A DNA stretch of 64,000 nucleotides, taken from positions 372,001 through 436,000 of the forward strand of contig JAYWIR010000051.1 of NCBI GenBank assembly GCA_036172245.1, given 5' to 3'. Each line of letters begins with the position of its first letter. Within the stretch, counting starts at the first letter, position 1. The translations under genes were made by a program, and so were the position numbers. This document shows, in pieces, positions 1-61,100 of this stretch. The stretch is from Raillietiella orientalis (Eukaryota). The notes under the pieces are model-generated. The model ran no database searches. It worked only from the letters and a program-made list of their open reading frames with translations, and was not told the DNA's origin.

Positions 1-462
1 ATTGTTTTCAACGCACGATTCTCACAGTCCATCGCTAAACCTAGTCACACTTCCCATCTGGTGGTGCTACTGACTCACAAAATGCATACACGCTCGTCAG
101 TCGCTGTAGGAGATTGTAGGAAACCCATGAGGGAGTCATCTACACTCCTTGCCCCAGTTCGACCCTCTCTAAGGGAAGCAAAGGACGGTCTTAATCTGTT
201 AAGGAGGCAAGTGACCTGCTTCACTGCAGCACAAAGAAAAGAAATTTCTTGGTGCGTCGACAACACGGGAACGTACGGAAGCGGCGAATTACACGCTGGG
301 GTGTGCTGCTGGGGATTCCCTCAGAGTACCTGAAGTGACCTCCAGCATGCTGGAGCAGTCGCATGAGGACGGCCTGGAAGCAGGACGATGGAAATCCTTG
401 GGTCCTTTTTTTTTCTTCTGTATTTGCTATTTTTCTTTCAGCTTTTTTTTTTAAGAGTTTTC

Positions 463-1058
463 TTTTTCTTTTGGCTCGCTAAGTAAACCTCAAGAGCCGG
501 TCGCGTGCCTCGCGGCGCACGTGGCACTTTTTAAACATTAAACACAGTTTTGTTTCCACGCCTCTCCGCCCGCGGCAACCCGCAGGGGAAGGTGTAATTC
601 TTCAGTGTAATTCTTCAGGATAAGGGGCACCCCGGGATGAGGGTCCGCCCTATGAATCCAGGAAGGGCTCGGAGTCCGTTCCTCTCACGCTTCGGGAAGG
701 ATTCTACCCCATCCGGGGCGGATCGCACCTCCCACCCTGGTTGTCTCCGAAGGGGAACCCCAAAGGGAACCTCCTTCCTCATTCCCTCCGGAGAGAGGTT
801 TGCCCGTGTTCAACTTCTCCGAAGGGAACCCAAAAAGGGACCCGCTAGTAGGAATTTCTTCTCCGGAGGGAACCCGCAAGGGAACCGCTCCTGTTCACTC
901 CTCTGAAGAGAACCCCGAAGGGACGCTTCCGAAACTCAGAAGGGGCGCTGCAGCTTCCCGCAGGGAATCGCTCTCGCTTGCTTCCTTGCACTCTCGTAGA
1001 GGTGGCGACCCGGAGGGTTCCCCCAGCAACAGGGGGGATCCGCTCCTTTAAACAACTG
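463..1058 (-). repeat. Inverted copy of 4528-5123 (3' two-thirds of the SINE-like element)
   Basis: Ungapped 596-bp reverse-complement match (position i pairs with 5586-i) with 9 mismatches counted by hand. The ORF track mirrors this (637..906+ equals 4680..4949-; 800..1051+ equals 4535..4786-). Confidence 0.95.
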
Positions 1059-4000: not shown

Positions 4001-4199
4001 CTGGGAAGAGCAAACCCCCCATGAATGGCCCATGTTCCACCAAGCAAGCGACCTACTCCCTAGCCTGGAGCGATCCGGAAGTCACCCGCGCTTCCTTTGC
4101 AGCCTCTGGCTCGACTGCAGACACGTATGTGGGTCACATCCTCTCCTACAGGCAAGGAATCGAAATCGAAAGCAGGGCGCCGCGCTAAGACGCAAGTCG

Positions 4200-5123
4200 G
4201 AGGCGTTGTGGTTAAGGCTTCCGCGTGTGGCACCATGCGTTGCGGGTTCGAATACTCCGGCAGAAACTGACGCCACTGCGCCGTTGCGTTCCGAGTTTCT
4301 CCTGCAAGATGGTGCTGGTTGGCCGAGATTTTCGGGCGTGGCACCGGCGTTGGATTAAGCCGGGAGGCCCCTGATGAAGGCTGGAACAATGGGAGTCGAC
4401 GTTCGGGTCCTTCCAGGAATCAAGGAGTGGGAGTTCCCCTTCAATCATACAACAGAGAGCGGACCCCCCCCGGCGGGGGGACCCTTCCGGTTCATTCTAG
4501 ATGGAGCACCCCTCCAGTGCACCTCTCCAGTTGTTTAAAGGAGCGGATCCCCCCTGTTGCTGGGGGAACCCTCCGGGTCGCCACCTCTACGAGAGTGCAA
4601 GGAAGCAAGCGAGAGCGATTCCCTGCGGGAAGCTGCAGCGCCCCTTCTGAGTTTCGGAAGCGTCCCTTCGGGGTTCTCTTCAGAGGAGTGAACAGGAGCG
4701 GTTCCCTTGCGGGTTCCCTCCGGAGAAGAAATTCCTACTAGCGGGTCCCTTTTTGGGTTCCCTTCGGAGAAGTTGAACACGGGCAAACCTCTCTCCGGAG
4801 GGAATGAGGAAGGAGGTTCCCTTTGGGGTTCCCCTTCGGAGACAACCAGGGTGGGAGGTGCGATCCGCCCCGGATGGAGTAGAATCCTTCCCGAAGCGTG
4901 AGAGGAACGGACTCCGAGCCCTTCCTGGATTCATAGGGCGGACCCTCATCCCGGGGTGCCCCTTATCCTGAAGAATTACACTGAAGAATTACACCTTCCC
5001 CTGCGGGTTGCCGCGGGCGGAGAGGCGTGGAAACAAAACTGTGTTTAATGTTTAAAAGGTGCCACGTGCGCCGCGAGGCATGCGACCGGCTTTTGAGGCG
5101 CGCTTAGCGAACCAAAAGAAAAA
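4200..5123 (+). mobile_element. Putative non-autonomous retroelement (SINE-like, 924 bp) with tRNA-like head, hammerhead-like motif and A-rich tail
   Basis: Flanked by exact 13-bp direct repeat AAGACGCAAGTCG (4187-4199 and 5124-5136). A-box-like AGGCGTTGTGG at 4201-4211, B-box GGTTCGAATAC at 4245-4255, ends in CCAAAAGAAAAA. A second partial copy lies at 463-1058. Confidence 0.65.
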
Positions 5124-5199
5124 AAGACGCAAGTCGCGCTCGCTCGGCCTCCAGCAGCAGAGCGCCTTCCCATTTGAAGAGCCGATCCTCTTTCACTTG

Positions 5200-8100
5200 T
5201 CTGGAGCTAGGATCGTTCCAGGATGTTCGCACTTATTCCCTGTCTGGCGAGCAAATAGAACGATTAAGCGGACCTTCCTTGAATGGTCATCAAGGCTCTT
5301 CTGCGTTTGCAGGGGGATGACCTTAGATGAAGACCACTAGGCTCTCTCAGATTGGACCGCACCTTGCCCCTTTCTGCCTCCATGACTTGCCTTTCTTGGT
5401 TGGTCAGTCTTCGACGCTGAGGAGATAAACCATCCCGTGGCCATGGAGCACGTAGCATCCGTAATACTGCCAAGGAAACGCACCAGCCGATAAGAGTTTG
5501 CTCCAACTGGCTGCTGCGCGCTCCTCCCTGCAACTTCGCCTGGCTTCCTTCATAGGCTACCTGTGGAATAGACCTCGTGAAGACGTCCTTTTCTGCCGCT
5601 CCGGCCTCTCCGGAGCGGGCTTTGAGGTCACCGGTCTCGGGAAGGGGAACTACGATTTCCACCCGGATACGCCGGAGAGTTCATTAAAATTTAGAACAAA
5701 TTCACAAATTGTGGTAGGGCACGTGGTCCTACCAAAATCCGTCTGTCCACGGAACTGCTGCGTCGCCGGTACGCAGACCGGTGGAGCCCACCTCGACTGA
5801 GGAGGAGGAGGGGAGAAAACAAAAAGAAAAATCGAATAAAAAATAAATAAAAAGAAGTGAAACTCTTTGGAGGGTCGGGAAGGGACCACTGTCCACTGGA
5901 GGGAGTCTGAGTCCTTTCCAGGATGGTCCATCTGAGTAGATCCCAGGTGGGGCCACCTGGTCGCTCTCCGCAGAAAGCGAACTGCGAACTGGACAGCGTC
6001 CCCCCATTTCTTCCTCTCCTTTCTTCGACCCCGCTGATGTAGCAGAGCGCTGATGGGACTGCGGCTGGCTGTAGAGCCTCCTGCTCAAATAGGACCCGTG
6101 CAACGTCCCTAAAGGGGCAGACTGGGAGCCGGAGGGTCGTTTCCCAAACGTTCCCACAGGAATTGTTCGAATGGCTGCTCGCGAAATCTCGCTGCCCACT
6201 TCCGCATCCGAGGAGGACACGGCTCCGGCTGGACTTTGTGACGGTTGGTGCAGCTCGTTCCCCGGAGCATTCGGCCGCCGAAGAGAGTCGACCCACACGC
6301 ACCAAGGGGGGCGAAGAAGGGCGAACTGTCCTTTCGGTCCTAGATGGAATGAAGCTCTGAGGAGGCGGCGGCAGAGCTGCCCACTGGCTCTCGTTCTCCG
6401 GGAACCCTGCAACCGACGCGGAGATTCGGATCCAGCGCTGCGAGCCCCCTCTCCGTCTCGACTGCCCCCCAGTCCGATACCAATACTCTCAGCGGGTGAA
6501 CTTGTCCTTTCCGCGTTCCCAGCTCATCAGACAAAGAGCAGCGCGGCAGCGCACGTAAGGGGAGGTTCCGGGCCATTCCCCCCGTTCGTCTCCTTTCGTG
6601 TCTTCTCCGCCGGGAAAGAATCTGTTCCGCGGTACAGAGTGTGCGGGGGAGGGGAAAGGGTGGATGCCGTTGGCTGCATACCACGTGGTTCCTGATGACC
6701 TCGTGCGAGTGTTGCTTGGCCTTCGGGTCCTGCTTCTTGGATCTTTCGCAGCGGTCAGCTCGTTGTCCAAGATGCCGCCCTGCCACAGTCTCATCTCCGT
6801 AGCTCTCCCTTCAGGAGTCCCATCAGAATTTCATCCGTGTCCCTCTGAGAAGTGCACCGTTATTCCGATGGGGATGCTTCGTAAGAAGGCCAGAATGACT
6901 CTCCACGTGGAGTCACACGTTGGAACGACTCGTTGCACTCAATGGAGCCCTCGAAGGACCTCGATCACGGGTTGCTCTCGAAGATTCATTGCCTGAACTC
7001 TCCGGTCCTGAGAGTTTCCACCAGGTCACTCCGGGGCGTTTATTGTAAAAAAAAAAAAAAAGTACATTTTTAAAAATAAATAGTAAGTTTGAAAGGGGGA
7101 AAAGCGGGTCATTCATCCGCAGTGCAAATTCCGAGTGCGTGACAACTAGTCAAATGAGAGAAGCGGCGACCCCGAGTACCCTACCCGAAGGGCTTCTCCG
7201 CGGGGGATCCCTCCGAAATCCCGGATGCGACCCCAGGCGTCGCAGGATAACCGCCCTTTCCCCCTCAAGCGGCGGGAACCAGCCTTTGGGGAATCCCGCG
7301 CAAAGCGCACCTTCGCCACTGGGCCCTGGAGAGTGCGACAGGCGCGGGGGGAAGGGAGGCCCTCCCGCGCCTGCTCCTCGACTGCATCGCCCTCTTGCCC
7401 CGTGGGCACGCTTCGCGACGGCCCTCCGGGTGCCCCAGGACGTCGTCAGGCACCTCGTCGTGCGTGAAGCGCTGCTACGAGCCGCGCGCGTGGCAGCTCT
7501 TCGCTGCCGCCTGCGCGCGCGCGGGACGGCGGCGGTACGGAACGGCGCGAGGAGAGAGCCCAACGCGACCGAGGCTCCGTCCATCGGAACGAAGCTGTTC
7601 TTGAGGATCGCCGCGAGATGGCTCTGTCTGGGAAGCGACAAACTCCCTCTCGCCGGCATCCTCCAGAGGATGGGTGGGACGTCGCGGGACACGCAGAGAT
7701 CGCTTCCCGACCCCACCCCACCCCCAACAAAGAAGTTTATAACTCCTTTGTTTGTTTTTGTTTTGCGTCCCCCCATCCCCTGCACCCCCGCATCGGATCC
7801 CAACAGGCAAGTGGGAAAGGTCCTTTTTTTTTGTGTACGTGTTAGAAGCGAGTGTCGTACCAGAAATGTATACAGTTTTATTTCGATAATAAATGCTCCG
7901 GAAAGGCCAGGCGAGAAACCCCACTTAGTCGGTAAGAGTCCCGCAGGCGATTCCTGGTCGAGAGCAGACTTCTCTAAGAGGTCTGCACAGTGAAGACATG
8001 GAAGGAGGAAAAACACGAAGACAAAACTGCACCTGAATGGATGTTGGGGGGAAGGGGGAGGCAAGGGAAGAGATCATTGAGAGCTCTCCGGCGTTCCCTG

Positions 8101-24500: not shown

Positions 24501-25007
24501 CCTCCCGAAAGGTCTCAGGAAGTTCCTTCGAAGATCTCATTGCTTTATTATGTAATTATGATGATGTAGCTCTTCGCAAAAAGGAATGCAAAAACGAACA
24601 GTTACAAAAGCGAATTCCTTATTGGAGCAATGATGGCCTTAGGTTATGTTCGAGATGGCTTGCCAATGAAATAATTCCTTGCATGTTGTGCTGGAAAGAC
24701 TGTTTACGTACAACTGGATTGTGGTTTTAAAGAAACAGGTTGGTGGTGGACCCCATTGTGTAATAACGCAGACTCTTGTTTTTATTTGTGAATCGTGAAC
24801 GAAACGGAAAAAATGTGATAAGTGATCAGATTTTTTTTTTTGTGTGTGTGTTTCCATAAATGTAGCTCAGCTATACGCCAATGGATTCGTTGTAAAATGA
24901 ACGTTCATGAGAATACCTTCATCATACAGTTTGAACACCAGGATGTTCAGTGAATGCCTGCAATCTAATCAAAGTCTGATGATTTTTAATGGATCTACTA
25001 TGGAAAC

Positions 25008-36083
<11,076 letters not shown>

Positions 36084-49400: not shown

Positions 49401-52400
49401 GTACAGCCCCTAGAAGAAGAGACGGGGCGTTCGCACTGCTGGGAAAGGTCAGGACGGGTGAGGCGGGTGACGTCCGGGGGAAGCCGCAGGCGAGGAGTGC
49501 TGAGAGGGGCCACCGCGACAGCGACGCCCGAGGGGAATTTCCTTCGGGAGGACGACGTTTTCCAGGGATTTTTTGCCATTCGACCTCCACCGGTAGCGGC
49601 TCCTATGCGGGGCCGGAGCCGGGTCTACCCCTCAGAGAGATCTCGCAAGACACCTTGGGAAGCTCAGGGACACCGGTTGGCATGGCGACCCGCGCCCTTA
49701 GAGCGCGCGCTGAGAGAACTCGTCATCAGAGGTTTCTCCGGCAGCAGTGTGCTCCCCCCCCCCCCGCCTGCCGGATCGCAAAGGTGGCGGAGCCGTGAAG
49801 GGGGGGGGGGAGGGGGAAGAAAGAAGGACAGTCCGAACCCCTCGGGCATCCGGATCGCTGGAGTCTCCCCACGCGGGGGCACCTGGTAGCAACTCGTTGG
49901 AGCTACGCTCCGCGTGTCCGTCGGTCCTGGGGCGAAAGGTGCGTGGTGGCAGTGTCCCGGAAGTGGCGTCACCACGCAACCGCCTGCCCCCAGGCTGCCT
50001 GACCCGGGAAACGGCCGACACAGACCCCGTGGGCTCCCTCCGCCGAGGTTTGAGCGAGTCCATCCAAAGTTGGGCTGCCACGTGTGAACCGCGGCAACGG
50101 CCATCGTCGCTGCCAGCGTACACCATCGCAGCCCGGGTCACCGTCGCTACAAGAGCGCGCGTCGGAGAGGTCGGAAAGCGGAGCTCTACCGCCCACGTGG
50201 CGAGGCAGGCGCTAGACGCCCCGTTCGGGCGCGTTGGGGTAGCACCGCAAACGCGCGCCATTTCCACATCCCATCCGCGGCTCAAGGTTAGGTGCCGACA
50301 GTTCCCCTGCTGTACCTTTCGTTATCTCCCTGCTCCCGCGCACGTTCCGTCTGAAAAAGAGTGGCCGGTAAATCCTAGCGCGACTTTGGCGCCACTCAAG
50401 CGCACCGCGGAATTAAAGCCAGGAGGAGGAGGGAGAGGGGACGCCAAGGTTCGCGCACTCCAGCCTCTACCAGAAGCACCAACGCGCCACCAACTGCGAG
50501 CTCGGAAAGCAATATGGCGCTGCGAGAGTCGGGCGGGCGCACGGTGGCCTCGAGACCCCCCGGTCGACCCCTCAAAGAGGAGGAAGGGGGAAAAGAGGCG
50601 ACGGACCTCCGCTGCCCAACGCAGCCGTCAGCTTTTCCCTCTAAACGACCTCCTCTCATCGGCGCCACCGCAGCAGCCCGCCCGGTGGCCTCTGTCGCGC
50701 TGCTGCCCTGACTGCACCACCTCGCCGATGGCGCCGCCTTCGGCTCCCCCTCCCCTTGCACGCAGGGGAAGGAAGCTCTTGGCACCCACCCCTCGATGGA
50801 ACTCTCGTCTCAAAGAGACCCGAAGGGCAAAGACGAAAGGGGGACGTCCTTGCGGCGCGCGTCCGTGGACTGCGCTGACGCAGCAGCCGAGGCGCACAGG
50901 CAGTTGTAGCAGCGGATGTATGGCGGAGCTGCGAGCGCGCTCGCGGTTCCGGGCGTTGGCGAGGGACGGGAGGGAGATGGGCAAGCATCGCCCGCGAAGT
51001 TGGTGAGCGGGCGGAGTCGCGCGCGCATGAATGGGGGGACCGGCTGACGGTGCCAAGAGAGTCTGGCAAGCGTAGCCCCACGCGCGGGGGCCAGGGAAGA
51101 GAGCGTGAGGCTGCTTCTCCTTCAATGCGGCGCTAGGATGGCGCCTGCAGAGCACCGAGGCTCTTGGGGTGCCGGCAGTGAAGGGAGTGAAGGGGACTGG
51201 GAAAAGGAAGACCGCCTCTAGGAGTACCGGAGCCGCGCCGTCGTCGCCCGTGCACGCCCTAACTCGCCGTCCTGGCAGGCGGCGACCTCCTGCCCGCAGG
51301 GGAGGTCCACATTCCTCGGTCTCTGCGCGAGCAGTTGCCACTGAAAAGCCAAGGGCCCCCCGGACTAACGAAAGGGACCCTTGGCGTGGTCTACGGGAGG
51401 CGACCGGCGTGCCCCCTTCGCGGCTTCCTCAACAAGCGTCCACGTGGCTCCCCTTTCTCCGCGAGGCGTTGTCGCTGCGGTCTGCGTGGGTCGTCCGCTT
51501 CCCCAGCCACACCCAAGGCTGGCGGGGACCGCTGGGAGTAGGGCGCAGTTTCCTAGGGGACGCTCCCCCTCCTCCGGTGGGAAGCGAACGGAACTGACCA
51601 CGACCTCTCGTAGAGACCCCCAAGCACGGGGGCGGGCACCTCGTGGCCGCGTGCACCCGGAGAGCGGTGAGCGCCTTCGAGGGTCCGTCGCTGAGCCACC
51701 TAAGCGCAGGGAGCCTTCGCGAGGAAGAAAGGGGGCCTCTCGCCCCGGAGTGTGGCCCCCCGCTCAAGTGGGCTGGCAACGCGTTATCCCGGGCGATCCA
51801 CGCCCGCAGCCACGTCCGAACCGCCTCCTAAGTCCGCAGCGTACCCTAAGAGCGAGCGAAGAAGGGGAAGGGCAATGTGGCGCGGTTGCCTGAAAGACGA
51901 TGCCCTCGTAAGACGGATGGACAAGCCAAGAGAGGGGATCGAGCGGCGCCCGGAGAGAGGCGCGCGATTCCTCCCCCCACCCATCCTACCCCCGGGTGGA
52001 GTAGAAAATCCACGTCCTTCTGTCCCATGGGCGCGCGGACGTTTATCCCTTTTCCCTCACCGCGGGCCGGCGCGAGGGAGAAAGGAGAGTCGGAGCGCGC
52101 CTGCACTCTCCCTGGAGCGCGGGGAAGGGGACATCGCAGGGGTTTAGCGCTCCCTCTAGCCCCAGGAAGAGGCGGAAAGTCCTCGGGAGCGCAGGGAAGG
52201 GGTGCTGTCGCGGCTAAGGAGCCGGGACGGAGCGCGGGGTCACCTCGCGAGCCTCGGGAGAGATGCCAGCGACATAGCTGATTCACGGAGGGCCCCCGGA
52301 ATTCCCCTTGCGAGCTTTTCGACTTCCGGAAACCGGGTGCGGGCACAACCACAGTCGGATCGTTCCTCGCCCGGCACCGGGGTTGTCCTTCCTGCACGCA

Positions 52401-55400
52401 CTCAGGGACCGGGGCAAAGAAGCAGTGGGAGCACCCCGTGTGCGTTGGGAGCGGTGCGCGTCCCCGGCCTCCCCGAGTGGGGGGAGAGGCGCACACGCGC
52501 ACCCACCTCCGCGGGTGCGCTTCCGCGCAGCTGACGCTACCGTTGCCAGGAAATCCGGGGGCACCCCTGCAGCGGCGCACCCGCCGCGGATCGTTCTGGG
52601 ACGTCCCCCCCGCCGTCAGGTGCGACCACGCACGCGCAGCAGCGCGGACCGCCGCCTTGCGGCCTTGATGGGCGGATGCCGCCGGCGCGGAACGCCCTGA
52701 GCCGCAGCGTCGCGGCGCTCCCGTCGCCACCGCGGGGCGCGCGCGCAGCGGGCTCCCTCGAGCGCCCTTCGCGGCGAGTGGGCAGTCGACCGAGAAAAAT
52801 CTATGGGTCGACGGGCCGGCCGATGAACTTCCGACTGCCGCCGGCACACCCGAGAACGGACGGATGGGTGTCCCAAGTCGACGGCGGCGCTCCTCGCGGT
52901 CTCGGGGACAGAGGCCGGGGAAGATCCACGGCCCCTTCGGGTAGAGAGGCGGGCGGGGCCGGCCGGGAAAAGCGGCCGTGCAGTTTCGCGGGCGCGCCCC
53001 GAGCGCAGCGAAGATCCTGCGCGCAAGCGATCCGGCCGGCAGTCTCTTTGAGAGGCCGCGCCAAGTGATCCTCCGCCGCTCACCTACGAAGCAGGACCTA
53101 CGAGTAAGGAAGGGAGGAGCCGCCCCCTTTTGACACGCCCGGGAGCGGGAGGTTGGCATAGTGGAGGCGCCCGCTCGACCCGCTTCCCAGCGGCATCCCT
53201 CGGGAGGGCTTCCTGCAGCGATGCAGGTCCAAGTCTGCCTCGGAGCTCGTGCTCCGGCGTCGGGTTTTTCGGCGGCATTCGTCCCTCGAGCCGTCGCCAA
53301 TGTACCGGGGTCGCTGGGCGGCTTCCACATCCTGGCTGTCGGCCAAGCCGCTCTCCCTTGGCTCAATCATCCACCCCCTCCCCCTAAGGCATGTCCCGCC
53401 GCTCGAGTTCTCGCCCGCGGAAGGAGCGCGTTCCCTTCTCGGGAGCAGGAGACAGGAAGGCGCAGCTTATTCGACCTCCGCCTGAACTGGAGCGGCGCAT
53501 ATGCGCCGCCACCGCCGCCGAATGGCGTGGTCGGAGCAGGCGGGCACAAGGGTCCCTTGGAAATCAGAGGAGGGGCGGAGGACTCGGTGCCGCGGATCAC
53601 GCCGCGCGCCGAGGTTTAGAGGGGAGGTCCCGAAGGGGCCACGCCGGATCCCGGGGGGAGGAAGGAAAAAGAATCCTGTCGGAGGGGGGGATGGAGGCTT
53701 CACGAGGAGAGAGCGGCGTTCGGGGCGCCACTCCAGCGACCCTAGCAGACCGCGACCTCACGCGACGTCGGGACCCAACGTGGATCCCCTGCTCGGAGCT
53801 CCCATGAGAGCAGAGGGTCACGGGACAGGGCGCGGATTCCCCATTGCAGGCAGGAGAGTTTTGCTGGCAAGGGCCAGGCCGACTGCGTCCTATCCCGAGT
53901 GCCTGAGGGCCGCACTGCGACTTGCGGGCGCGCCCGTGCGCAGGGAAGGCGGACAGCACGCCCTCAATGTCTTTCCATCCCTGCTCGAGGGGGATTCAGC
54001 TGGATGTGGCCCTTCCTTCTCCCCTCGCGGAAGGAGGACGCCCTGAGGCTGCACGGGGAAACGCCGCCCGCCTCCTCGCCGGAGCCCGGGAGCGGCACGC
54101 CGCCGCACGAAGGAGTCCTCCGGGTCGGAGTGCCGAGAAGACCCGCGGAGACGAGGGTGACCGATAACCTCATGCCCTTCCCTTCCTGGAGGGTGGGGCG
54201 TGCTTTCCTCCCTTTCTCCGCAGAGGCAGCGAGGAAGGGAACGCCGGCAAGTTTTTCCTGGGTGGCGCGGGCGGAAGCCGCCGCCGCTTCGTCGGGAGGG
54301 CGGGCACGGAGAGGAGGGGCGGAGTCCAGGACTGGGGAGCGCGGAGATGTCTGAGGGCTTTCTAGGCAACCGCCCCATCCCGTCGGCTGCCTCTGTGGGG
54401 CGGCGCCCGTCCTCGGCTCGCCGCCGGTGGCGATGCCGCCGACCTTCCGGATCGGAGGAGGAAGGACGTGGACAAGAGACAGTGGAACCCCTTTCCTCAC
54501 CAGAGCTTCAGGAGGCAGCGCCCGCGACCCTCCGCTCCAGAACCCAACCGGGGGGCGCGGATCCACCCGAGGGAGTAGGGAGGAAGGGATCCATCCCCCT
54601 CCCTTCGAGATGCACTCCTCCATTCGCCTGAACCGGGGCGGCGACTGTGTGGTAGGCAGGGAGCGTAGGTCGCGAGAGGGGGTAGACACGTACCAGGACG
54701 TCTACGCGAAACGTCCTTCCTTCGGGATCACTCGGCACGCGCGACGATGGCGAAGGCTCCGGCGTAGCCTGGAAGGTCTCTGCGCCGGTCCTCGTACACG
54801 AAGGCGGTACCTGGCGAGGGACCCCGCGAAAAGCGGACCAGGACGGGGCGCCGCTAAGAGGGCGAGTGAGACGCGCCTGCCGCCCCCCCTTCCCCCCCCC
54901 TCCTATGGGGACGGCACTCACTCACCTTGGTTTCCATGCCGCGCTTCTCTATCTCTGACACGCACAGGGCGATGGGAAGGGGGATGTCGTGGCACGTCCT
55001 CTCCCTGGACCGCTCCAAGCGCCTCCTGTGGCACGGAGTGCCGCGCTGGGGAGAGAAGAGATGCTCGCTGGCGCCCGGCGGTTTCCAGGTAAGGGGAAGA
55101 GGGGGAAGCGCGCGCCGGAGTTCGCGCGACTTCGCGGACCTCCGAAGGGCCGGAGGGTGTTCCTGAGTATGCCGGGAGCGCTGGGAGGGGGGGGAGGTCG
55201 GACCAAGTCCAGAGTCGACCGCGCCACGGCGGCTTACCCGGGTCGCTGGGAAGCCAGGCGTCCGACGACGTCACTCCCCCCCGCACCACCCCAGAACAAA
55301 ATGCGACCGCTTTTCCCGGCTCTGCCGGGAAAGGCCCTCTCCTCCGTTGCTGAGGAAGCGGTGGGAAGCCCGGAGCCGTGGCAGCTGGCCTGGAGCGCCA

Positions 55401-58155
55401 CGGAAGGGAAACTCCCAGAGCTCCCGGGTGCGCGCCTGGCAACCGGAAAAAGCGGCTGCGCTTTCGCACTTTCTGGAAAAGGGGAGGAAGGCACGCAGGC
55501 AAGGCGCGGACCTACTGCTCGCAGTCCCCCACGTGAAGACCCACGGGAGCTTCGGCGCGACCCGCCAGTCCACCTGGAAACCATCAGGAAAGGGCGCGGC
55601 GGCCGCCTCCCTCCTTTTCGAAGCCACAGAGAATGACGAGTGGCATCGAAGGACCATCGATGACACTGCCGGCCGCTCCGCCTTCCTTTGGAGAGCTAGG
55701 GGCCCTCCCTTCATCTTAGGCAAAAAGAACGGGAGGGGTGCCCCAGCAAGCGTAGAGGGAAAGGCGCTTTGGTTGCCAATTGCCAGGGGTACATCGGGAG
55801 GAGAAAGGGGAGAAAACAAAGCAGGGAGGAGGAACAGGAAGGGAGAGGGAGGAGGGAGAGGAAGGAAGGAAGAAGGGAGGAGGAGGAAGGAAGGAAGAAG
55901 GGAGGAGGAGGAAGGAAGGAAGAGAGGAAGAGGAAAGGAAAAGCCGCCGTGACCGCCCTCTCATCAGACGCTCCCGGAGCGCCCTGGTCCCGTCCCGCGC
56001 GCGAGTCGCTCGAGAACTCAAGGGAACCGCACCAGAGCGGAGGATGAGAAGATAGGCGCAACAGGAGGGCGTCCGTGCTATCCCGCGCAAGCGCGCCCCC
56101 TCTCAAGAGCCTCCCATGTCCTTGGTGGAGGGACGGTTTCCGGGACTCACCCTCTCGTGCTCCACTCCTGGGTCCTCCTCCGGGCAGGGACACTCGCAGC
56201 ATCCCGCTCTGGATCTTCCCGAAGGGAGCGTCTCTGGAAAGAAGAAAAGCTCTCTGCACCCCGCTGTGGAGACGGCAGAGGGAAAGGCTGGACTGAGAGA
56301 GAGGAGGGGAAGGGGAAGATGCCCCGCGTCCCGGCTTGAGGCCAGGGAGCGCGATGCACTCACCGACTGGTGAGTTCCCGCTGAGCTGGCCGGAGGACGC
56401 CCCGCGGTAGCATGTGGTCACGGGCGACGCCGAGGAAGACGTGGCGTCCTGGTCGGGGTTGCTGTGACCGCTGCCCGCGCTCTCACTGTCGCTAACGGGC
56501 GTCGTCCACGCCCGGAGCGGCTGCTTCCCTGCGGAGACACATGCGAGAGAGAGTGGAAGGCCCCATGGCTGGGAGGGGGAGGAGGAGCGGGTAGGGAGTC
56601 ACGGCTTGCCTCCCGATGCCTTCCGAGGAGCGGAGAGCGCCCCCTCTGCCGACCGTGCCTCGAGAGCGGGACGAGCCGACCGGGAGGGAAAGCACGCCGA
56701 GGCGACCTCTGAGCGCTGACCCGCACGGTGCTGCTGCCAGGCGGCGGCTGGCGGAAGCTCCCTTCTTCCCTGCTCTCGAAGGGCACGCCTGGCCGCCGTG
56801 TGGAAAAAGGCGGAGAGGGTCCTCCTTCCTTCGCTATGCCTCGCCTGCTGACGAGCCCATTCCGGACGCCGCCAGCTGCGGGGGAGAAGAGGGGGCCACC
56901 GGGTACCAAAGAAAGGCAGGAAGAGCGGCCGGCAACTATGGTGGAAGCCGCTAGGGAGCGCCAGAACAGAACCGACGTCGAATCCGACGTCAACGCTGCG
57001 GGCAGTGGCGGTCCCTTTCTCCCCTGCTCCAAGTTCAGCAGTACCCGTGGACGGGGCGTGGCTCTCCGAGCAAAAGGGGAGCGACCGTGGGAACGACCTG
57101 TCACCCAGTCACGTCTCGGGGACGGTGCTGGGGGTGCAGATTCCGAGCGGGTCAGAGCAGCAGGTCAAGGTAGCGGGTCGGTGCGGGAGGCCGAAGACGA
57201 GCGAAGCAGAAGCCCGCTTCGTCCCGCAAGGCGGTGGGCCTCCGGCCCATCTGAATCGAACATGAGAGGGGGGCGTTGTCCTGTGTCTCTCAAGAGCGTT
57301 GTCTTCGCCGAAGACAACCACCCGGAGGAACGCTCCTCCGCCGATCATCCGGGAAGAACGGAATGACCTCGGGAGAACGCCGGAAGGCACGGAAGAGACT
57401 CTCCCCATAGGCCTCTCCTCGCGTGATGCGCAGTTACCTTCGCGGCACCCATCCTCCACACGCAGAGGGTCTGCGGATCTGTGGTCAGATGGCTCTGCCT
57501 TCGCTCTCATTTTCTCGGCCGCGGGCTCGAAGACGAACGGCGAGGCGGGAACTTCCTGAGGTTGGTCGTGAGGGGCAGTCGCACACAGCTTCCCGATTTC
57601 CTCCAGATAGCCGGAACCGGGTGCGTATAGGCAGCACTTCTCTGCTAGCATCTTGTACTGTGGTGGAACAGGGTGAGACCGGAAGCGCCCTCGATCCAGC
57701 CATCCGGGAGGAGGAAGAGGATGAAAGAAGGGAAGAGGAGGAAAAGAGGAAGAAGAGGAGTAAGTGAGGGAGAGAAGAGGAAGAAGAGAGAATGAGGAGG
57801 AAGAAAGGAGGCAGGGCAGAGGAGGAGAAAGATAGGAAGAAGGAGGAAGAGGAAAAGGAAAGGAGGAGGAAGAAAAGAGGAGGAGGAAGGCAGTTGGCAC
57901 CTGCATTCCAGGACCTCTGAGGTGCGGGGAGGGTGGGTATGGAGTGGGGTGTGGACTCACCCGGTGGTAGCTGAGGGCAGCGCGGGAGGCATGCATCTGG
58001 AAGTAACCGGTGCTGGCGGTCTTCATGGCCTTGTCGTACTGGCGGACGATCTCTTGGATCTGCTCCAGGACTTCCCTCTTCACCTTGCGCAGGGAGGAGT
58101 ACCTCTCGTTGGCCTCCACGATGCAGGCCTTGTACGTCGTCTCGGCCTCGCTCGC
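46432..58155 (-). CDS. ARHGAP45: Rho GTPase-activating protein of the ARHGAP45(HMHA1)/ARHGAP29(PARG1)/GMIP family; 5' end not located
   Basis: Exons found: 57961-58155 (F-BAR tail ASEAETTYKACIVEANER...YFQM), 57438-57657 (YKMLAEKCCLYAPGSGY...FVFEP), 56364-56491 (DSESAGSG Ser-rich linker), 54926-55045 (C1 remnant plus DIPLPIALCVSEIEKRGMETK), 49225-49409 (GLYRVSA arginine finger, HPNIISNVLKQYLRQMPDPLIP), 47650-47896 (FLVRHLKKI...MSATNLGVVFGPTLFR), 46432-47592 (tail ending EHFI*). AATAAA at 46419-46424 on the minus strand. One or two linker exons and the N-terminal exons are unresolved. Family assignment is firm; the symbol is only one of three vertebrate co-orthologues. Confidence 0.85.
49466..49558 (-). 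repeat. Diverged copy of part of the RhoGAP last exon (47113-47204) inside an upstream intron of the same gene
   Basis: GGTGACGTCCGGGGGAAGCCGCAGGCGAGGAGTGCT...CCACCGCG...CGGGAGGACGACGT aligns to GGTGACGCCCAGGGGAAGCCGCAGGCGAGGGGTACT...CCACCGCG...CGGGAGGACGACGT. Confidence 0.8.
55796..55943. repeat. Homopurine (GGA/GAA) low-complexity tract with a 25-bp unit repeated about 2.5 times
   Basis: GGAAGGAAGGAAGAAGGGAGGAGGA in tandem; lies in a RhoGAP intron. Confidence 0.85.
57706..57890. repeat. Homopurine (GGA/GAA) low-complexity tract in RhoGAP intron 57658-57960
   Basis: Almost pure A/G on the plus strand for about 185 bp. Confidence 0.85.
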
Positions 58156-61100
58156 CTGCAAGATGGGAGAAAGGGGGGGAGGTGGGAGAACTGCAGCCGG
58201 ACGGAAGGGGGGGGGAGGCAAAATCAAGGAAGAACAAAGGGGAGGAGGAGGAAGGGCCAGACATCTTTCGTGGTCCCGAGCAGAACGCCACGCTCTGGGA
58301 GCTACTACTTCAACCCGCCGCCGACTGGGCGCCGCGGCGGGGAAGGACGGAAGGCGTGCCGGAAAGAGGCGCACCCACGCGGGTGCGAACCTGAGGAGGC
58401 CGCCGTAGACCTCCGAATGTGCGAGATCTCCACCGCCGCCGACGCTCCTCCGGGAAAGCCGTCCGCCAGCCTTCGGGACCGGACCCAGGGCGGCGGGAGA
58501 GGGAGAGCCACAAGCGCCCTGAGGGACGCTGAGATGAAGACGCTTCCTAGGAGGCGCAGGTCGTCATACAGGACGCGGAAGAAAGAGTTCCACGACGAGC
58601 CACGCCTCCCGGAAGGTCGACGAGGTCGCGATGCTCGGCGCGGCCATGACACCGAGGCGGCCTCCTCCCTTCAGGAAACCTCGGGAGGAATCCCGATGAG
58701 AAAGACGCGATGCTCCGGCAAGTGGCAGCCGTCCCGGGTTTGAGGCGTTGGTCGCCATGGGAAACCTCCGGCGACTTTGCCTCCTCTCAACAGCCGCGGG
58801 TCGACGAAGAGGACAGGCTGCTGCCCTTCGGAAACATCGCCAAGAGCTTCCCTCCATCACACCCTCACGAGGTTGGGGGGAAGTCCTTGTCCCGCCAGAG
58901 TCCCTCTTCTCCTCCTGAGTATGCGGCCGGCTGGGCCGCCCGCTTCCCCATCCCGGAGGAAACTCGTGGAACGTGGCGCGGCGTTTGGAGCGGAAGAAAC
59001 CCCCCTCCCCGGGAACGCAAGCGCGAGGGGGGACGGGGGGTAACTGCCCGCAATCCCTGCCCGGATTTCCCGGTCGGAGGTGGAAAAAATCAAAGCAAAA
59101 CAATCACGCGTGCTCCGCTCCTTCTATTCGAGGTGACTGGAGCTTCCGTATCGCAGGCGACCAGGGGCGTGGCGCGGATCCCCTGATAATAAATCTCAAG
59201 GGGAGTCGCGACAGTGACGAACGACAGGGGCGCGCGATGCGGACAACACGCTAAGCACCGTGTGATGGAGAGAACCTCCTGCGGATCGCCGCGAGAAAGC
59301 GAAACCGCGCGGGAGGCCCGCGCCGACCGACAACAACAACAGCCCGAACGGGGGCGTCTGGGATCCCGTCGCTGCCCCGGAAGGAAGTCGAGAGCATCCG
59401 GATATCTGCGACGGGGAGGGAGGGACGCGGGATCCTCTCGGGAACGCCTCCTGCGGCCATCGAGGAGATGCGCCTTCCTCCTCCGCATGCTGCTGCTTCC
59501 GATTCTTCCGATAAGCGCCCGGGGATGTTCTCTGTCCTGCCGCTAGGTCCGGTCGCACAGCTTCACAAGAGAAAACTCGCGTTCCTTGCGTGCGCGGAAA
59601 GGCAAAAAAAAAAAAACCACCCTCAGAAAAACCGCTGTTTCATCCTCGCCGCACCCCTAAGCGCCTGAACGTGCGCATGCGCGCCAGCGCACACTCGTCG
59701 CCACTTTCGCTACCGCTCGCTGCATCCACCCTGTCTGCCAGCCGTCTTTGCCAATCCGTCTTTCACAATGCGAACGCGAAACTCGTTTTCTTCCCCCGCC
59801 CCCCCTCGCCTTTCAGATCTGCCGAAATGGCGCGCACTTTGGATTGGGGAGGCGGGGAGGGGGGGGGGCTTTGGGGTTTGGGAACTCACTAATTCCATCA
59901 GGGCATCAGGAGTTTCCCCTCCTGCGGCCGGTCGTTCGCGCAATCTGCTGGGGGTGCATTGCATTCCGCTCAAGTTCCCATTAAGAGGGTTGTTGCTTCT
60001 GACCTCTGCTAACCGGCGGAATTCGGGCTGCCCAACAGGGATCAGATGCAGGGAAAAAACAAAAACCCAGACTCTTGGAAGGAGCACGAAAGGCCGAAAA
60101 AGTTCTACGAGCGCGCCCGATCCGTGAGCCGAGCTCAAAATCGGGAAGCTCGCGCGGCAACAACGAAAGAGGCGGGCATGGCGGTGTCCGCGTTGTGTAG
60201 AGACAGTGTAGTCCACCTGGTGGGATGTTCCGAGGGCGGCGTCCATGTGCAAGGAAGAAAGTTGTGACAAGCGGAAGTCCAAACGCCAGGAGCGCGTGCG
60301 AACCCTGGCACCACCGAAGACCACAACAAGGAACCGACCCGCAGGGAAGAGCGATGGAGCAGACCGAGGTCGGAAGCAAAGGACGCGCGAACGAGTCCAC
60401 GTGGACCTATCGGATGGAAGTGAGCGGGAAAGGCACGAATTATCTGATCTCCTGCAAATGGGAATGAGGCAAGCGCATTCGAAAAGGCGAGAACCTCTGG
60501 CTGACAGGAAAAGAGCTGTGCGTGCGCGTTCGGGAAGCTCCGAGAGAAGCCGTGATCGGAGACGGGGACTGGGAGGACCGAATGGCCCGCAACGGTGAAG
60601 CGAAGATGAGAAGGGAAGAAGGATCCGTGCTGTTTCCTGCTTTCCCTTCTTTGTTTTGCTCGCTCCCTTCTTTTTTTTTTTTTGTCGAAGCAAACCTCCC
60701 CCTCTGCTACAGAGAGTCTTTTTCCGCGGAAGGCTGATCTGGTCCTCGCCACTCCCTTCCCACTTTCCCCTGCTGGAATGCTGCTCGCGTGGGACCGAGT
60801 TTCCCTTCCGTTCCCGGATGGCTTACGATGCTACGAGGATTTCCGATCTAACCTAACCTGGCGCCGCGAGAAGCGGTTTCTGGCGCATGTGCGCGTCCAA
60901 ACCCCGAAGAGCAAAACGATACTGCGTGTCTCCAGGTGCCCACGCCTACGCCGGACGCGTTCTCGGTGACATCCGGGAAGAGAGAAGCAAAAATGGCGAC
61001 TCTGCACGAAGGGTGCAAACGCCAGCGACGCGGCCGCCACCACCGGAGGAGGCGCAAGGCCATGAGGATGGACGCCTTAGTCTCGGAAAGAACATACTGG

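Follow-up and report, generated by a model that had tools for sequence, protein, structure and literature searches.

A target site duplication (TSD), an A-run and a 3' end held in common with a 5'-truncated sibling are together the product of target-primed reverse transcription by the endonuclease and reverse transcriptase (RT) of a LINE. Composite retroposons of the SVA type, which are specific to hominids, are mobilised by L1, and the SM-alpha element of schistosomes joins a pol III head to a ribozyme. For the SINEs of bivalves, the part of the source available gives TSDs of 6-18 bp and an accepted length of 200-700 nt (PMC11481361). Retrozymes are described, in the accessible portions of the respective sources, as tandem units of 170-400 nt in animals (PMC7229834; bioRxiv 10.64898/2026.07.22.740005) and as LTR-like repeats with ribozymes in plants (PMC4918200).

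The element described here lies in a 64-kb stretch of DNA, the whole of which was analysed and is referred to below as the window. It is bounded on both sides by an exact 13-mer, AAGACGCAAGTCG (Table 1). This direct repeat had been pointed out in an earlier note on the same DNA and, on direct reading of the sequence, is indeed present at both junctions (4187-4199 and 5124-5136); an exact 13-mer common to two 100-nt junction windows would be expected by chance 1.5e-4 times. The 3' terminus of the 924-nt unit is CCAAAAGAAAAAAA. No AATAAA-type signal occurs anywhere in the unit, and repeat scans found no terminal direct repeats inside it. The bases preceding the TSD give a bottom-strand site of TCTT/AG which, although this is one site only, resembles the TTTT/AA preferred by the L1 endonuclease.

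Table 1. Features of the window and of the metagenome loci used for comparison. Positions are those of the window except in the last row, where they are those of each locus.
Feature	Position	Strand	Basis or remark
Longer degenerate A-rich tract beyond copy 2, its tail or A-rich target	385-462	-	direct reading
5'-truncated sibling (copy 2), 596 nt	463-1058	-	unit positions 329-924, 98.5% identical; inverted-repeat scan, BLASTN, alignment
TSD, 5' copy, 13 bp, AAGACGCAAGTCG	4187-4199		identical to 5124-5136
Degenerate tRNA-related head; A-box-like 4201-4211, B-box-like 4245-4255	4195-4266	+	33/72 ungapped matches to window tRNA-Pro
Non-coding retroposed unit, 924 nt	4200-5123	+	TSD on both sides; no Pfam family in its ORFs
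Internal TTTT, likely pol III stop ~130 nt into unit	4329-4332	+	T-run list
CUGAUGA heptamer (the "hammerhead-like motif" of the earlier note), no ribozyme	4371-4377	+	descriptor test, Rfam, local fold
G+C-rich body with degenerate subrepeats	4447-5022	+	repeat-family search; TRF agrees
Internal TTTTT, retained in copy 2 (at 836)	4750-4754	+	T-run list
Stable hairpin of the 3' module, identical in both copies	4990-5029	+	folds of last 134 nt
Short A-rich tail, AACCAAAAGAAAAA	5110-5123	+	direct reading; stretch up to the A run common to copy 2
TSD, 3' copy, 13 bp	5124-5136		direct reading
MAGI-like PDZ, WW, PDZ exons	24990-35697	+	Pfam
tRNA-Pro genes, anticodons AGG and TGG, 699 bp apart	41664-41735, 42363-42434	+	tRNA search
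FCH + RhoGAP gene, GMIP-like	46432-58563	-	Pfam
Metagenome tRNA-like heads with the same two boxes	L001 1501-1548; L002 1501-1548; L003 1501-1548	-; +; +	

A repeat scan found one long inverted pair in the whole window, 463-1058 against 4528-5123 (596 nt, about 98%), and a BLASTN comparison of the unit with the window returned two copies only, the next-best matches being 28-nt internal subrepeats (E=0.049). Copy 2 is without the 5' 328 nt of the unit; the remainder is colinear with copy 1, has no indels and differs from it at 9 of 596 positions; 4 of these differences fall together at 5099-5102, and the remaining 5 are all transitions. Homology between the copies ceases at 5123, in the A-run, while their 5' ends differ (4200 vs 4528). 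The A-rich end at which homology to a second copy stops, and the 5'-truncated sibling sharing that boundary, had both been claimed in the earlier note and are both borne out by the alignment. Immediately 3' of the A-run, copy 1 passes into the 13-mer and copy 2 into a degenerate A-rich stretch of about 75 nt. When aligned, the sequences flanking the copies, upstream included, show no relation to each other. No direct repeat longer than 6 nt flanks copy 2 (the best is 6 nt), and the 13-mer of copy 1 is not present there.

The TSD, the A-rich end and the sibling with a common 3' end therefore point to target-primed reverse transcription, and the retrotransposition that had been proposed on these grounds holds up. 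We consider it probable that a non-autonomous, non-coding non-LTR retroposon, moved by a LINE enzyme acting in trans, was recently inserted at 4200-5123. Under this explanation, an RNA of the unit that ended with a short A-rich run would have been copied into the chromosome by the endonuclease and RT of a LINE of the L1-like, A-tail-using kind; the bottom strand would have been nicked at ...TCTT/AG..., with priming on the A-run, and staggered cleavage of the second strand would have produced the 13-bp duplication. The sequence at 463-1058 would belong to the same family but have been inserted separately, its 5' truncation being due to an early halt of reverse transcription. The unit itself would be a composite of a worn tRNA-related 5' module, a G+C-rich subrepeat body and a unique 3' module (hairpin and A-run), its full-length RNA being made by pol II or by read-through, as in SVA-type composite elements.

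The 5' module was described in the earlier note as a pol III-like head with an A box and a B box. Both motifs are there, but they are weaker than was stated, with 2 mismatches to the consensus in the A box (4201-4211) and 1 in the B box (4245-4255). A lenient scan for A/B pairs gave 6 in the window, of which 3 coincide with its two tRNA-Pro genes, and a mean of 1.58 in block shuffles (pairs per 128 kb, both strands); because shuffled sequence gives 1.58 pairs against the 6 of the window, A/B motifs alone are weak evidence. From the shuffle rate, only about 2e-4 pairs would be expected to start within ~15 nt of any one end, and the box pair of the head, placed at an end that was independently defined by the TSD, is evidence that is not weak. 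Furthermore, in an ungapped comparison the head is identical to window tRNA-Pro at 33 of 72 positions, base 1 of the tRNA falling at 4195, against a background of 18.2 +/- 3.7. A score of at least 33/72 was reached at 17 of 127,458 window positions, with a maximum of 38/72. Since this best register takes in the last 5 nt of the 5' TSD copy, the true 5' end of the unit is uncertain; either a few 5' bases are missing from the unit or there was microhomology between the target and the end of the element.

Dedicated tRNA finders did not recognise the head. ARAGORN called no tRNA there at its default, -ps or -ps70 settings; at a 50% threshold with introns it made two calls, with introns of 121 nt and 16 nt, which were rejected as implausible. 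The Rfam tRNA model gave nothing at E<=10 on 4100-5200 or on 4180-4480, and a cloverleaf is absent from the predicted fold of the head, the stems of which do not pair. A search with the two-box pattern found 3 metagenome loci and had 0 matches in prokaryote genomes. The heads of these three loci align gap-free with the unit head and with tRNA-Pro across the D-loop and T-loop regions, and head motifs are all that the loci have in common with the unit (longest blastn match 22 nt); judged on these alignments they are comparators, not relatives. At the pattern sites their heads are also left uncalled by ARAGORN and by the Rfam tRNA model, and because the same tools miss all three, their negative result at the unit head is not decisive. 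In one of the loci (L001) a real tRNA match lies ~150 nt off, on the same strand as the head, and in another (L003) a T6 run follows the head. We read the head of the unit as a decayed tRNA-related module that appears tRNA-like in primary sequence only. Of the proposed pol III-like head, the box-like motifs at tRNA spacing and the resemblance to tRNA-Pro stand, whereas a tRNA call and a cloverleaf are lacking.

A run of four Ts stops pol III. Both tRNA-Pro genes of the window have exactly TTTT within 7 nt 3', this being the first T-run after each, and four Ts are therefore probably enough to stop pol III in this organism. Within the unit, in addition to the T4 and T5 runs of Table 1, a further TTTT occurs at 5091-5094. 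With these internal runs, pol III starting at the head would be expected to terminate after ~130 nt, and a full-length pol III transcript is therefore unlikely; the ~0.9-kb pol III transcript envisaged in the earlier note is thus not what would be expected. We infer that pol II, or read-through, is the more likely source of the 924-nt RNA that served as template.

The subrepeats that had been reported in the body are real. A 29-nt motif (family D1) occurs five times, at 4660, 4700, 4744, 4816 and 4994, with 69-100% identity and spacings of 40-178 nt; further subrepeat families (D2, D6, D9 and D10) are present, as are two 13-nt tandem doublets (4506-4531 and 4968-4994). The subrepeats show no length difference between copy 1 and copy 2. 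The last 134 nt, which include the hairpin of the 3' module, fold with z-scores of -1.53 in copy 1 and -2.61 in copy 2. The hairpins listed in the earlier note exist in the sequence, but their stability is no more than chance, with z-scores of +0.53 for the head (first 101 nt), -0.81 for the whole plus strand and -0.55 for the minus strand; the unit folds no better than shuffled sequence. An inverted 13-nt match of 85% between 4222-4234 and 5058-5070 was set aside as being at chance level, ~5 such pairs being expected by our own estimate. Searches with short probes from the unit gave 0 matches for a 22-mer of the 3' module in metagenome contigs and 0 for a 24-mer of the subrepeat in viral contigs; a 20-mer of the 3' module had 8 matches in G+C-rich bacterial genomes, which were rejected as chance, with only 20-30 nt in common with the unit.

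Like tRNA-derived SINEs, the unit is non-coding, with an A/B-box-like 5' module, a body of unknown origin and an A-rich tail. Its 13-bp TSD is within the 6-18 bp of bivalve SINEs, whereas its 924 nt lie outside the 200-700 nt range of acceptance, both as given in the accessible part of that study (PMC11481361). It also differs from these SINEs in that its head goes unrecognised by tRNA finders, in that pol III would be expected to halt at its internal T4 and T5 runs, and in the long 5' truncation of its sibling copy. By analogy, then, the unit would be SINE-like in being non-coding and LINE-dependent, but is at odds with SINEs in length and in its internal terminators, and its architecture appears closer to the SVA type. 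As in SVA elements, the unit is non-coding, ~1 kb or more in length, and made up of a SINE-derived 5' piece, internal repeats and a unique 3' piece; the likeness extends to an A-tail, a TSD of at least 10 nt, frequent 5' truncation and probably pol II transcription. No sequence relation to SVA is expected, and there are differences: the subrepeats of the unit are degenerate and are equal in length in both copies, and it has no polyadenylation signal.

It is clear that the unit has no coding capacity. Its longest open frame (4271-4741, 156 codons) has no Met and matched no Pfam family; a HMMER pass for this frame, which covered 1.84 billion representative proteins, gave a single match (E=2e-6) to a 681-aa tandem-repeat protein, and this was rejected as low complexity, a 22-residue stretch being matched 10 times. 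None of the ORFs of the unit has a start codon and Pfam found no family in them, which agrees with the statement in the earlier note that there is no RT ORF between the TSDs. Neither RT, endonuclease nor GIY-YIG families were found by Pfam in the 221 stop-to-stop frames of at least 110 aa in the window (scanned in sets of 16, 92 and 120, nine frames being only in the 16-frame set), and the 80 frames of 60-109 aa in 1-10.5 kb had no Pfam family at all. There is therefore no autonomous partner in the 64-kb window, whether a LINE or a Penelope, and the absence of a GIY-YIG/RT ORF family from the window and of a hammerhead from the unit likewise sets it apart from Penelope-like elements.

An alternative that we regard as unlikely is that the two copies derive from the 3' end (3' UTR) of an autonomous LINE and are both 5'-truncated, 4200 being one truncation point and the boxes coincidental. 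Such copies would resemble the unit in their TSD, A-rich 3' end and variable 5' ends, and the differing 5' ends (4200, 4528) and common 3' end seen here are typical of LINE insertions. A random truncation would, on the other hand, be unlikely to place a tRNA-like register and a box pair exactly at the TSD-defined 5' end. The internal T4 and T5 runs fit the pol II transcript that this alternative supposes, and neither ARAGORN nor Rfam calls a tRNA, but the 5' part has no frame like the C-terminus of LINE ORF2: there is no Pfam match, the 156-codon frame has no real relative, and no trace of ORF2 was seen in the unit or in the window. The length of 924 nt, which exceeds the SINE acceptance range of 200-700 nt found in the available part of PMC11481361, would also suit a LINE.

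It is less probable again that a cellular pol II transcript, for instance an lncRNA or a long UTR, gave rise to both copies as processed retrocopies, with no dedicated mobile family involved. While a TSD, an A-run and 5' truncation also arise when LINE enzymes copy cellular RNAs, two near-identical independent retrocopies within 5 kb fit an abundant active family more easily. The presence of only two copies in the window and the absence of coding capacity would be in keeping with retrocopies; the tRNA-like start of the unit, and the lack of an AATAAA-type signal 5' of the A-run, would not. We think it very improbable that the pair is an inverted duplication at the DNA level, with the 13-mer an internal or chance repeat. 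The copies are indeed inverted and 3.5 kb apart, but their homology stops exactly at the A-run and TSD, the flanks of both are unrelated, and the 13-mer, with its low chance expectation, is not found in the flanks of copy 2.

The unit contains no hammerhead ribozyme. What the earlier note took for a hammerhead-like motif is the CUGAUGA heptamer only. No Rfam hammerhead family was matched at E<=10 in 4100-5200 or 4180-4480; the Rfam matches below E=10 (mir-9318, PyrR205, sbcD, mir-1261 and ZFAT-AS1_1) were far under their gathering scores and were discarded as chance. A descriptor test, in which a helix of 3 bp or more had to start directly after CUGANGA and close just before GAA, gave 0 candidates on either strand of the unit plus 50 nt each side, and 2 in the whole window. 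Three unpaired bases stand between CUGAUGA and a nearby 6-bp helix, which is then followed by GAA; no helix I or helix III partners of the heptamer were found by eye, and the minimum-energy local fold places it, base-paired, within a long hairpin whose stability is ordinary (z -0.94). The unit resembles retrozymes and SM-alpha as a non-autonomous, non-coding animal retroelement, but differs from them in having an A-tail and a 13-bp TSD and no hammerhead. That it is a retrozyme or an SM-alpha-like SINE with an RNA self-cleaving via a hammerhead, the pol III-hammerhead chimera of the earlier note, is the least probable of these alternatives, as the heptamer, 3-nt gap, helix and GAA are set against wholly negative ribozyme tests, and a single unit with an A-tail and long TSD is found instead of the tandem array of 170-400-nt monomers given for animal retrozymes in the accessible part of PMC7229834.

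To return to a non-autonomous retroposon moved by a LINE in trans, the unit is an element of an ordinary kind, of somewhat unusual length and composite build. A tentative extension of this explanation is that it could be a founder-like copy from a family of long composite retroposons, as yet undescribed, in a poorly sampled animal or animal relative. Such a family would be an independent, SVA-like invention in which a decayed tRNA-SINE head became joined to a subrepeat array and a unique 3' module; it would be transcribed by pol II, moved by an A-tail-using LINE and still active, the last because of the 98.5% identity between the copies. Should the family prove large and young, it would mark active LINE machinery in the genome, and could serve as a presence/absence marker and help in annotating repeats. 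A composite of just under 1 kb headed by a pol III-derived module would add another case of independent fusion between SINEs and repeats. No new mechanism is opened by it, the seemingly exceptional feature, the pol III/hammerhead chimera, being absent.

Some features of the surrounding sequence may be added. The first 10,500 nt of the window, in which both copies lie, have no Pfam family in stop-to-stop frames of at least 60 aa, despite a G+C content of 57% and frames of up to 314 codons; its CpG o/e is 0.8-0.9, and thus there is no strong CpG depletion, the values around the unit being 0.8-1.0. From 37-47% over ~10-41 kb, G+C content jumps to 64-69% over 42-60 kb; the tRNA genes sit where the change occurs. 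The RhoGAP part of the gene at 46432-58563 had no relatives in word-based protein searches. Protein look-ups yielded eukaryotes of mixed phyla and no close relatives, and the PDZ/WW/PDZ and FCH/RhoGAP genes suggest an animal or something closely related. Two pairs of direct repeats, 44172-44233 with 47554-47615 (94% identity) and 47109-47182 with 49462-49535 (80% identity), lie in the G+C-rich gene region, and both may be internal gene duplications or another repeat.
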